Of a stretch of DNA of 64,000 nucleotides, positions 49,070 to 49,555 are shown piece after piece. The stretch is from Eubacteriales bacterium (lineage in GTDB: Bacteria; Bacillota; Clostridia; Oscillospirales; QAKW01): positions 26,786-90,785 of the forward strand of contig JAZQJA010000042.1 of the NCBI GenBank assembly GCA_045541455.1, given 5' to 3'. Made by a program: the position numbers and the translations under genes. How positions within the stretch are numbered: position 1 is the first letter of the stretch; every line of letters begins with the position of its first letter. A model generated the notes under the pieces. That model did no database searches, was not told the origin of the DNA, and saw nothing but the letters and a program-made list of their open reading frames with translations.

Positions 49070-49154
49070 GCGAGAGTGGCGGAATTGGCAGACGCGCACG
49101 TTTGAGGGGCGTGTGGATTACTCCGTACGGGTTCAAGTCCCGTCTTTCGCACCA
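49070..49154 (+). tRNA. tRNA-Leu (anticodon GAG), class II, CCA encoded
   Basis: The acceptor stem is GCGAGAG/CTTTCGC. The anticodon stem-loop is CACGT-TTGAGGG-GCGTG, with the anticodon at 49104-49106. There is a long variable arm, the T-arm is ACGGG-TTCAAGT-CCCGT, and the 3' end reads ACCA. Confidence 0.93.
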
Positions 49155-49307
49155 AAAAAGTTCATACACCAATAGGTGTGTGAACTTTTTTATTTGTATA
49201 AAAAAGGGACTTGAACCCCAAGGGGGCACGAACGTTTAGAAAAACAGTCCGGTGGACTGTTTTTTAGTGAGTGGTGCGCAGATGGGCACCGTGAACAAAG
49301 TGTAACG
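49137..49307 (+). repeat. Direct repeat copy A (includes the last 18 nt of tRNA-Leu)
   Basis: It is identical to 49340-49509 except for one A-tract indel (A6 versus A5) and one AA/GG dinucleotide. Confidence 0.95.
49206..49218 (-). repeat. Inverted 13-nt copy of the tRNA-Leu T-arm (a second copy at 49408-49420 lies inside repeat B)
   Basis: GGGACTTGAACCC is the exact reverse complement of GGGTTCAAGTCCC at 49129-49141. Confidence 0.9.
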
Positions 49308-49339
49308 GTCATCAAGCAGTTAAGACGCAAAGCGGCTCT

Positions 49340-49509
49340 GTCCCGTCTTTCGCACCAAAAAAGTTCATACACCAATAGGTGTGTGAACTTTTTTATTTGT
49401 ATAAAAAGGGACTTGAACCCCAAGGGGGCACGAACGTTTAGAAAAACAGTCCGGTGGACTGTTTTTTAGTGAGTGGTGCGCAGATGGGCACCGTGAACGG
49501 AGTGTAACG
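49340..49509 (+). repeat. Direct repeat copy B (begins with an orphan tRNA-Leu 3' end, GTCCCGTCTTTCGCACCA)
   Basis: See copy A. No tRNA body lies upstream of it. Confidence 0.95.
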
Positions 49510-49555
49510 TAATCTTTTTACGCTTTTGCAATAAATAGTGTACCATGAAACGAAC

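Follow-up and report, generated by a model that had tools for sequence, protein, structure and literature searches.

tRNA genes are the main landing sites of islands and prophages, and the tRNA fragments displaced by these elements are used for mapping them. Described CIMEs are kilobase-sized decayed ICEs or IMEs. Such elements have kept attL and attR, while the genes for integration and transfer have been lost (PMC5704250). The recognised crossover sublocations of tDNA integrases are the anticodon loop, the T loop and the junction of T arm and acceptor stem, attP measures about 250 bp, tandem arrays at one tDNA are known for islands, and the Islander procedure drops candidates that are shorter than 2 kb or lack an integrase (PMC4383910).

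Investigation of a tRNA-Leu(GAG) locus in a 64-kb stretch of DNA from a Eubacteriales bacterium (the whole of the DNA analysed, referred to below as the window) revealed a repeated unit that begins inside the tRNA gene. On balance of evidence that we regard as about even, this unit is a gene-less, non-autonomous mini-cassette with att-type bounds, which was inserted by site-specific recombination and then amplified or reduced via recombination between 171-bp repeats. New here are the variation of copy number within the species, the junction sequence J as a conserved cassette end, the recurrence of the cassette beside other tRNA genes and the fixed start of the second copy.

Repeat structure at tRNA-Leu(GAG)

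Downstream of tRNA-Leu(GAG), 1.8 copies of a 202/203-nt unit were detected (49137-49509, 98% identical), which Tandem Repeats Finder reported as a single array over the same positions, with a period of 202, 1.8 copies, 98% matches and a score of 725. A sequence-only reading of this DNA had proposed two repeat copies (A, 49137-49307; B, 49340-49509), which were borne out by a repeat search of the window and which, on reading the sequence, differ in the length of an A-run, by a single A, and in one dinucleotide, AA versus GG. Its descriptions of the sequence itself all hold, including a third hairpin (GGTGC...GCACC). Each copy opens with the last 18 nt of tRNA-Leu (GTCCCGTCTTTCGCACCA), a sequence with exactly two occurrences in the 64-kb window, where a search allowing up to three mismatches has an expectation of 0.01 chance matches. 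The terminator hairpin of the tRNA scores as an intrinsic terminator in both copies (49154-49191 and 49357-49394), and the second hairpin, ACAGTCC-GGT-GGACTGT, is likewise present in both (49240-49264 and 49442-49466). The inverted T-arm GGGACTTGAACCC corresponds exactly to the reverse complement of 49129-49141 and, together with its flanks, makes up a 19-nt inverted repeat that is 89% complementary. The interval between the tRNA and its displaced 3' fragment is 185 nt and contains no real ORF. The features of the locus are as follows:

49018-49046, plus strand: promoter-like site of tRNA-Leu, TTGACT, 17 nt, TG-TATAAT (11 of 12 consensus matches, extended -10)
49070-49154, plus strand: tRNA-Leu(GAG), CCA encoded (ARAGORN and Rfam tRNA model, 47.5 bits)
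49137-49154, plus strand: DR1, tRNA positions 59-76, first copy of the 18-nt repeat and start of unit A (repeat and motif searches)
49154-49191, plus strand: hairpin X/T of unit A, intrinsic terminator of the tRNA, a 17-bp stem followed by T6, terminator-like when read on either strand (terminator prediction, inverted repeat)
49200-49218, plus strand: invT of unit A, inverted copy of tRNA-Leu positions 51-69, AAAAAAGGGACTTGAACCC (inverted-repeat search)
49219-49232, plus strand: box1 of unit A, CAAGGGGGCACGAA, conserved in the tRNA-Ser cassette L044; its counterpart in the tRNA-Arg cassette L126 is GAGGGGGTGAGCAC
49240-49264, plus strand: hairpin P1 of unit A, AAAAACAGTCC-GGT-GGACTGTTTTT, with an apex, TCCGGTGGA, that is kept across cassettes and a lower stem that varies in a compensatory way (inverted repeat, cross-cassette comparison)
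49272-49289, plus strand: TGGTGCGCAGATGGGCAC, the tRNA-Leu 3' end in imperfect inverted form, with GGTGCGAAGTCCG as its homologue in L126 and L158 (predicted pairing with DR2)
49308-49339, plus strand: J, 32-nt junction, conserved right end of the cassette (same-species and cross-cassette comparison)
49326-49334, plus strand: mini-hairpin CGCAAAGCG inside J
49340-49357, plus strand: DR2, second copy of tRNA positions 59-76 and start of unit B (repeat and motif searches)
49357-49394, plus strand: hairpin X/T of unit B (terminator prediction)
49403-49434, plus strand: invT and box1 of unit B, with an A-run one A shorter than in unit A
49442-49466, plus strand: hairpin P1 of unit B (inverted repeat)
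49467-49509, plus strand: remainder of unit B, GG replacing AA at 49499-49500
49595-54611, minus strand: neighbouring genes, encoding an HTH membrane protein, an ABC-2 permease, an ABC ATPase, an M50-like protein and an HTH protein

Two of the interpretations attached to these sequences need revision. The 32 nt between the copies had been taken as unrelated; they are J, the conserved right end of the cassette, with homologues at other tRNA genes. The identity over about 150 nt past the tRNA is present as claimed, but represents a partial tandem repeat of the whole cassette and not a long att site. Unit B stops abruptly at ...GTGTAACG, with neither J nor a third DR, and the array is therefore not a simple series of complete integrations. 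No tRNA or tmRNA was detected on the minus strand by tRNA prediction and Rfam models. Compensatory changes preserving a hairpin of the inverted T-arm were considered and rejected, the homology to the tRNA simply stopping after CCC(C).

Copy number within the species

Metagenome contigs of the same species, in which the neighbouring protein is 98% identical, carry one, two or at least three copies of the unit between flanking genes that stay the same. A single unit without J was found in L046, L047 and L048, which are short-read metagenome assemblies in which repeats may collapse, two units with J are present in the window and in L049 and L050, both of which end within copy 2, and L045 has at least three units. 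The array can be written as (DR-T-M-J)n followed by DR-T-M, where M denotes the central part, which runs from the inverted T-arm via P1 to GTGTAACG, with n equal to 0, 1 or at least 2 among strains. The length of J in the same-species contigs is 32-33 nt, and J was found only between copies and is missing after the last one. One strain-specific variant is common to the copies of a strain, with CGTTTAG in both window copies versus CGTATAG in all copies of other strains.

An assembly error had been named as a possible source of the duplication, and a falsely expanded repeat would be in keeping with the mishandling of 171-nt repeats by metagenome assemblers and with the two contigs that break off inside copy 2; its probability is nevertheless close to nil, because the copies differ at three positions and are linked by the unique sequence of J, because J is found in four independent assemblies and because independent same-species assemblies also have at least two copies.

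The period of 202/203 nt with 1.8 copies, the presence of one, two or at least three copies among strains and the variants shared between copies, which fit recent exchange between them, could also be explained by a purely local, VNTR-like tandem duplication of the tRNA 3' flank through replication slippage or unequal crossing-over, in which no mobile element takes part and the likeness to other loci reflects common constraints on tRNA 3' flanks. As an account of the whole locus this is distinctly unlikely, since duplication of a single-copy allele cannot create J, since J and box1 are conserved beside tRNA-Ser and tRNA-Arg genes in unrelated contigs and since, in other members described below, the tRNA-end copies differ downstream and an empty site exists. 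Local duplication accounts for the change in copy number and not for the origin of the unit.

Related cassettes beside other tRNA genes

The same architecture adjoins genes for tRNA-Ser, tRNA-Arg(CCG), tRNA-Arg(TCT), tRNA-Pro and tRNA-His in other Clostridia-type and phage-associated contigs, and a partial architecture adjoins tRNA-Tyr and tRNA-Thr. The parts follow one another in the order tRNA, hairpin, inverted copy of the local T-arm, GC-apex hairpin (TCCGGTGGA), mini-hairpin GCGAAGC and second tRNA 3' end, with a unit length of 152-246 nt across the family. The second tRNA-end copy starts at position 59 in four of seven families, at position 58 in one and at position 56 in two, and the inverted copy matches the local tRNA in every case among the families scored. 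Cassette architecture and junction position are thus common to several tRNAs. The proposal that the duplicated tRNA 3' end is an integrase scar stands as far as its form is concerned, which is of the att type, with a start at the last two nucleotides of the T loop and a second copy that starts at positions 56-59 in homologous cassettes, and finds no support with regard to a variable island.

The tRNA-Ser cassette L044 has in common with the window a 28-nt block of invT and box1, the P1 apex, CAAGCAG and GCGAAGCGGCT, the last of which directly precedes that locus's own tRNA 3' repeat. The score of the alignment between the window and L044 was reached by 5 of 5000 shuffles in a test that left out the 20-mer by which L044 was found. 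Further members were found by a search on architecture alone, including L013 and L158 at tRNA-Arg(CCG), L126 at tRNA-Arg(TCT), L141/L217 at tRNA-Pro and L152/L122 at tRNA-Arg(TCT) and tRNA-His. The core of the window closely resembles that of L126 around hairpin P1, at roughly 80% over about 45 nt as judged by eye.

Regarding the origin of the units, the tRNA-Pro loci have different terminators after DR1 and DR2, and L229, which is related to the tRNA-Pro case, carries tRNA-Pro and a terminator with no cassette, i.e., an empty site; both features indicate that the units probably arose by insertion rather than by local copying. In L122 and L152 the flanks are nearly identical and both cassette hairpins differ, which suggests that the hairpins have been replaced at one site.

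Searches of viral, plasmid and phage collections gave no meaningful match to the cassette sequence and no parent element with box1, P1 or J, and two over-degenerate patterns run against viral sequences returned only noise (random coding matches; no tRNAs). No family in Rfam 15 matches the cassette, the hits being tRNA and otherwise hairpin-driven microRNA models far below threshold, and no family of such mini-insertions was found in Rfam or in a small literature sample.

The conserved hairpins could alternatively belong to a structured non-coding RNA or a tRNA 3'-trailer element, in which the inverted copy of T-arm and acceptor would pair with the second tRNA 3' end and form a tRNA-minihelix-like stem with an NCCA tail around a hairpin core, co-transcribed with the tRNA genes. 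The ends of L044 form a helix of ~14 bp ending in GCCA, as counted from the predicted dot-bracket structure, its folding z-scores are -6.6 (RNA) and -7.7 (DNA), the cassette lies within tRNA gene clusters in L152 and L126, P1 of L152 lacks a T-run, so that co-transcription is plausible there, and many compensatory changes occur in the P1 stem. We nonetheless give an RNA of this kind little credence. Any inverted repeat folds well on both strands, and the covariation of P1 is explained by its resemblance to a bidirectional terminator in most members. In the window, strong terminators bracket each unit, no promoter-like site of the unit's own was found and an A-run stands in place of the decayed acceptor-side half of the helix; Rfam also gave no match.

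The row of hairpins in the cassette would also be in keeping with integration via a folded single-stranded DNA site, as in CTX phage and integron attC. In a hairpin mimicking the tRNA gene, one strand would be the tRNA-end copy and the other the inverted T-arm, and one strand exchange at 58/59 would give DR1, loop, inverted copy, element, J and DR2, so that both the order of parts and the fixed junction come out as observed. GCGAAGC is moreover an unusually stable DNA mini-hairpin. This route is very improbable: on manual inspection of the window and L044, the J end is unpaired with the distal inverted copy or box1, so that one half of the target would have no counterpart in the hairpin, none of the cassettes is linked to a rolling-circle Rep or a single-stranded DNA element, and the only Rep seen (L054) lies beside a tRNA without a cassette.

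Neighbouring genes, integrases and recombinases

The genes at 49595-54611 stand outside the cassette and do not vary with the repeat. The sequence-only reading had noted that the repeat abuts this accessory-looking cluster (49.6-54.6 kb); the idea that it marks a variable island finds no support, as all same-species contigs extending into the cluster contain it in collinear form irrespective of the number of repeats, and no third tRNA-end copy, J or other junction sequence closing it was found at its far end. As had been noted, the 64-kb window has no integrase near the locus, the neighbouring proteins being HTH, ABC, M50-like, LacI and SGNH proteins. Exact-protein look-ups of two flanking window genes returned no record. 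A genome scan with the SGNH gene as anchor gave relatives of no more than 63% identity, which have not kept synteny with tRNA-Leu. The same scan yielded cassette L013 by chance.

No integrase was found beside most cassettes, and the only one seen near a cassette, in L141/L217, is in a prophage. Accretion of the L141 cassette to this phage integrase was considered and rejected, the tRNA-Arg(TCT) between them being the phage's own target, and the 43-kb L141 contig contains no third tRNA-Pro repeat. No excised circle, within-species pair of empty and occupied sites or autonomous parent element was found. Other routes of insertion were weighed on sequence grounds only: insertion of the IS200/IS605 or IS91 type (TTCAA/GTTC target) was rejected for want of a supporting gene or a conserved end motif, and tRNA-primed reverse transcription, which the 18-nt boundary might suggest, and group II intron remnants were rejected on the same two grounds and with no reverse transcriptase nearby.

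The neighbouring cluster is also central to the reading of the locus as a true CIME, left over from the decay of one or two integrated islands or prophages of larger size. Unit A would then consist of fused left and right arms with the interior deleted, and unit B would represent the left arm of another element, which has lost its right end and its integrase, with the cluster as possible cargo. The cluster starts directly after unit B, its G+C content is 0.40-0.47 versus about 0.35 in the flanks and its products include HTH regulators as well as an ABC-2 exporter and an M50-like protein; in addition, a relative of L044 has a tRNA-Ser carrying an element with a Rep gene and an ORF read by eye as a candidate tyrosine-integrase C-terminus. 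Such a remnant is nevertheless unlikely, given that the cluster is invariant among strains with no DR3 or J-like sequence at its far end. The flank after unit B is not similar to J-DR, and its local alignment as a decayed J with a third tRNA end was no better than shuffles. Furthermore, at least six cassette families of the same small size and order of parts would be hard to obtain via independent internal deletions.

Proposed mechanism and significance

In the preferred explanation, insertion of a mini-cassette, a cassette of ~203 bp would enter tRNA-Leu(GAG) between positions 58 and 59, bringing with it a new 3' end for the tRNA (DR1) together with a terminator hairpin, as well as the inverted T-arm copy, the second, GC-apex hairpin and the short conserved J with its GCGAAGC-type mini-hairpin. 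DR2 would then be the original 3' end, displaced, and the layout would be that left by integration of the tyrosine-integrase type at the T-loop or T-acceptor sublocation. Homologous recombination or unequal exchange between the 171-bp repeats would subsequently raise or lower n. Which enzyme acted, in what direction events ran and what the inverted T-arm does are inferences on our part; since the element encodes nothing and measures about as much as an attP by itself, its recombinase presumably acts in trans or is long gone. Counting against this explanation, a circle of 150-250 bp is very small for integrase chemistry. An inverted T-arm copy is absent from classical attP features, which likewise counts against it.

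A broader and more tentative proposal is that the cassettes form a dedicated class of miniature integrative elements, 150-250 bp long, gene-less and with four or five hairpins, which would insert at 58/59 of many tRNA genes while rebuilding the tRNA end and would be moved in trans. The inverted T-arm, which always matches the local tRNA, might then be functional in the recombination site, either by providing another core, in inverted orientation, or by supplying one strand of a single-strand site that folds, or might be part of a tRNA-minihelix-like RNA. Such a class would have been overlooked by island pipelines because candidates shorter than 2 kb or lacking an integrase are discarded.

If the insertion of mini-cassettes is correct, gene-less insertions of attP size would add a "MITE-like" tier to site-specific integrative elements and would explain orphan tRNA and inverted T-arm fragments that confuse the annotation of tRNAs and islands. 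Through their rebuilding of the tRNA end and the terminators that they bring, the cassettes may also influence tRNA expression, and the change of copy number between strains offers a simple marker and a natural system for the question of integrase versus homologous recombination. If the units are only decaying scars, the locus would be an ordinary but well-documented example of a tDNA hotspot.

Comparison with known systems

The locus shares with tDNA islands and prophages of the Islander type an intact tRNA with a displaced 3' fragment downstream in the same orientation (DR1 49137-49154, DR2 49340-49357), a repeat that starts in the T loop or T-acceptor region, a recognised sublocation (position 59 in the window and 56-59 in six other families), and inserted DNA that restores the tRNA and brings its own terminator. 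It differs from them in that the cassette has neither integrase nor cargo, in the inverted T-arm copy inside the insert, in the unit of 203 nt as against a length of 2-200 kb with cargo, and in a repeat spacing of 152-246 bp versus more than 2 kb for the listed islands (PMC4383910).

As in CIMEs, the cassette has attL- and attR-like bounds without genes for integration and transfer, the DRs being putative functional att sites, and it occurs in tandem structures at the 3' end of the target gene, as in accretion in Firmicutes (PMC5704250). However, the whole cassette is approximately of attP size, and the same small architecture recurs at several tRNAs; recurrence at so small a size would speak against an origin from an ICE or IME by separate deletion events. 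Regarding cis-mobilisation, no helper element was found, the integrase of L141/L217 having its own tRNA-Arg(TCT) target.

Like MITEs, the cassettes are short, non-coding and equipped with cis-acting ends alone; they make up a family around a conserved core, and their movement presumably requires an enzyme provided in trans. MITEs, in contrast, are bounded by terminal inverted repeats and by short target duplications that DDE transposases generate, whereas the two cassette ends are not inverted repeats of one another and the "duplication" consists of the final 18-21 nt of a tRNA gene.

The attP(+) of CTX phage and integron attC resemble the cassettes in having imperfect hairpins, one strand of which mimics the target, and in the small, sometimes non-coding units in arrays. 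This is resemblance only: the cassettes are without integron integrase, attI context, dif site and pairing of the left half, and in place of the paired R and L boxes of attC, the J end pairs with the inverted copy only in the tRNA-derived part (manual inspection).

Finally, the period of ~203 nt and a copy number that varies between strains via recombination between copies are shared with minisatellites or VNTRs, from which the cassette differs in that its unit starts inside a tRNA gene, its junction is not derivable from a single-copy allele and it has homologues at other tRNAs.

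Repeat array at the tRNA-Leu gene

The repeat at the tRNA-Leu gene belongs to a recurrent family of miniature cassettes and has been amplified in tandem; the cassettes are gene-less units of about 200 bp, bounded by copies of a tRNA 3' end. The array comprises the following features.

49070-49154, + strand, tRNA-Leu(GAG), with a near-consensus promoter upstream
49137-49307, copy A
49308-49339, the 32-nt junction J between copies A and B
49340-49509, copy B

The last 18 nt of tRNA-Leu (tRNA positions 59-76, GTCCCGTCTTTCGCACCA) occur exactly twice in the whole window, at 49137 and 49340 (DR1 and DR2), against a chance expectation of 0.01 matches with up to three mismatches allowed. 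Copies A and B stay identical for 153 nt beyond the tRNA-Leu 3' end, the sole differences being one A of an A-run and an AA/GG change, and Tandem Repeats Finder reports a single array with a period of 202, 1.8 copies and 98% matches. Each unit runs from the tRNA end through a strong terminator hairpin (T), an inverted T-arm copy (invT, inverted tRNA positions 51-69), the box1 motif CAAGGGGGCACGAA and a second hairpin with a GC apex (P1, AAAAACAGTCC-GGT-GGACTGTTTTT) to an imperfect inverted copy of the tRNA 3' end and a small hairpin. The sequence-only reading had described this repeat accurately, as rechecking of its coordinates, copies and parts in the sequence confirmed.

Copy number within the species

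An exact look-up of the window's own flanking proteins gave no record, and same-species contigs were reached via a 98%-identical homologue (P0001) of the neighbouring SGNH hydrolase, which is carried by 24 contigs, with seven distinct places among the matches listed. Three contigs (L046, L047 and L048) have the tRNA and one unit followed directly by the flank TAATCTTTTT, without J; a pair of units linked by a 33-nt J is seen in L049 and L050, both contigs stopping within copy 2; and L045, interrupted by a scaffold gap, has three or more. Strains thus differ in repeat number (extra units, n = 0, 1 or at least 2), with the caveat that these are short-read assemblies in which a 171-nt repeat may collapse; against collapse, three contigs run through the locus unbroken and L047 has a variant of its own. 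In every contig reaching them, the genes that follow (HTH membrane protein, ABC-2 permease, ABC ATPase, HTH/M50-like and LacI) keep the gene order of the window, at 97-98% identity. The accessory-looking cluster at 49.6-54.6 kb is therefore constant whatever the repeat number, which leaves the earlier proposal of a link between repeat and cluster unsupported.

With M denoting the middle of the unit (everything between invT and GTGTAACG, both included, with P1 inside it), the window array reads (DR-T-M-J)n, then DR-T-M, then unrelated flank; the last unit has neither J nor a third DR, and no similarity was found between the flank after it and J-DR. As J cannot arise from a single-copy allele, a J-carrying insertion must have happened at some time. 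The window strain stands several substitutions apart from the other same-species contigs and, since J is found in both groups, the multi-copy state is probably older, with one-copy alleles derived through recombination between copies. Once two 171-nt repeats were present, unequal exchange or loop-out recombination would give n = 0, 1, 2 and so on, and would account for strain-specific variants common to the copies of one strain. Alternatively, an excised or incoming 203-bp unit could integrate, via the 18-nt core or homology, with the same products.

Other features of the window

Regarding the HTH/M50-like gene region, a 333-nt segment (53808-54140, about 14 nt overlap at the junction) is missing from L045, which has one 464-aa gene (HTH plus M50) where the window has two overlapping ORFs (53817-54611 and 52672-53820). 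A tandem GTCTCCTT-GTCTCCTT stands in the window just 5' of the start codon of SGNH hydrolase (48925-48950), in the ribosome-binding region, where all same-species contigs have one GTCTCCTT. Two further features were recorded.

24146-24370, - strand, T-box leader (Rfam RF00230, 105 bits)
47789-48145, + strand, MazF/PemK-type toxin gene, directly 3' of alanine racemase with a gap of about 100 nt

No antitoxin ORF of at least 50 aa is listed for the toxin gene, and L045 has the same layout.

Related cassettes at other tRNA genes

A 20-mer from invT/box1, used to scan a metagenome collection, had a single match, L044, from an unrelated organism that is richer in G+C and has clostridial YbaK homologues. 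After its tRNA-Ser(GGA), 60 nt lead to an inverted Ser T-arm copy and box1 as in the window, followed by a hairpin with the apex GTCCAGTGGAC, then CAAGCAG...GCGAAGCGGCTGC, then a repeat of the last 18 nt of tRNA-Ser and only after that a terminator. With the 20-mer seed left out, the alignment score of the window and L044 cassette interiors was matched by 5 of 5000 shuffles. The 32 nt between the copies, previously taken as unrelated sequence, thus belong to the conserved cassette, J having a counterpart at tRNA-Ser.

A sequence-agnostic search, which asked for a tRNA with an inverted T-arm copy no more than about 250 nt away and a tRNA-end repeat, found a tRNA-Arg(CCG) cassette from a genome bin of Anaeromassilibacillus (L013), and scanning viral contigs with the T-arm/inverted-T-arm pattern gave the following.

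L126, cassette at tRNA-Arg(TCT)
L158, cassette at tRNA-Arg(CCG)
L141/L148, cassettes at tRNA-Pro
L152/L122/L157, cassettes at tRNA-Arg(TCT) and tRNA-His
Partial cases at tRNA-Tyr, His and Thr

Measured uniformly across members, the DR1-to-DR2 distance is 152-246 nt. The tRNA position at which DR2 starts is 59 for four families, while one family has 58 and the remaining two have 56. The inverted copy ranges from tRNA positions of about 50-52 to 62-69 and corresponds to the local tRNA in every member measured; at the tRNA-His of L122 it is perfect over positions 54-76 (the last 23 nt) and forms with the terminator a near-perfect palindrome of about 79 nt. Most members have a GCGAAGC or GCAAAGC-type mini-hairpin 3-10 nt 5' of DR2. 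The P1 apex TCCGGTGGA is common to the window, L152, L122 and L126, with compensatory changes in the lower stem, and the window and L126 cores around P1, roughly 80% alike over about 45 nt by eye, stand at different tRNAs (tRNA-Leu and tRNA-Arg, respectively). The tRNA-Arg cassettes of L126 and L158 also carry GGTGCGAAGTCCG 3' of P1, the complement of which is closer to the tRNA-Leu 3' end (TTCGCACC) than to the local tRNA-Arg end; judged by sequence, it may be left over from an earlier target.

Insertion or local copying

At the tRNA-Pro loci the terminator after DR1 differs from that after DR2, and a related species (L229) has tRNA-Pro and a terminator without a cassette, while the sole terminator of L044 stands 3' of DR2. 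In L144, tRNA-Arg(TCT) and tRNA-His are 7 nt apart, and in L152 a 152-nt cassette lies between the same tRNA types. L122 and L152 have near-identical flanks but differ in the sequence of both cassette hairpins, with the architecture kept, which suggests that the cassette was replaced and did not drift gradually. The differing terminator and P1 hairpin sequences are located 3' of tRNA-His (L122, 1318-1510; L152, 463-570). Taken together, these loci fit an insertion in which the incoming element furnishes both a fresh 3' end for the tRNA and a terminator, the old end being displaced.

Search for an enzyme or parent element

An integrase adjoins the L141 cassette, but its reading as an accretion to the cassette was rejected because tRNA-Arg(TCT) lies between them in contigs with an identical integrase. 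This gene order indicates that the L141 phage sits in tRNA-Arg(TCT), the tRNA-Pro cassette being a mere neighbour. Among contigs with the identical phage integrase (L217-L226), an HNH endonuclease gene is variably present just 3' of the integrase stop (3556-4200), between integrase and tRNA-Arg(TCT). Searches of viral, phage and plasmid collections yielded no parent element bearing box1, P1 or J, and no Rfam family matches the cassettes. L054 (723-904 and 1869-3156), from a relative of L044, has a tRNA-Ser(GGA) with a 48-nt duplicate of the tRNA's 5' half in front of it. Behind this tRNA comes an element that encodes a rolling-circle Rep (PF23343) and a further ORF that reads by eye as a putative tyrosine-integrase C-terminus; this tRNA-Ser(GGA) locus has no mini-cassette.

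Inverted T-arm

The inverted T-arm is the least ordinary feature of the cassette. Together with the tRNA's own T-arm/acceptor strand it forms a 13-23-bp inverted repeat spanning the first hairpin, and in L044 it could pair with DR2 instead, giving a predicted tRNA-minihelix-like stem that closes the cassette with a GCCA end. By analogy with CTX phage or integron attC, invT is a candidate part of a folded single-strand site, which would predict the order of the cassette parts, although manual inspection showed no pairing between the J end and the inverted copy's distal half. An RNA role is possible for cassettes located inside tRNA clusters, such as those of L152 and L126; in the window each unit is bracketed by terminators and no promoter was seen. 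It is also conceivable that invT serves as a spare, inverted core site.

Comparison with tDNA integration

The finding at tRNA-Leu is real, and its structure exceeds that of a scar. The integrase-scar idea of the sequence-only reading was right in form, the tRNA end being duplicated, but there is no integrase near the locus in the window. Read as insertions, the cassettes follow the pattern of tDNA integration, in which the insert brings a new tRNA end and displaces the old one (PMC4383910). Island catalogues drop candidates that are <2 kb or without an integrase (PMC4383910), and these rejection criteria may be the reason such units went unnoticed. The cassettes are about equal in size to an attP (~250 bp; PMC4383910) and contain no genes.
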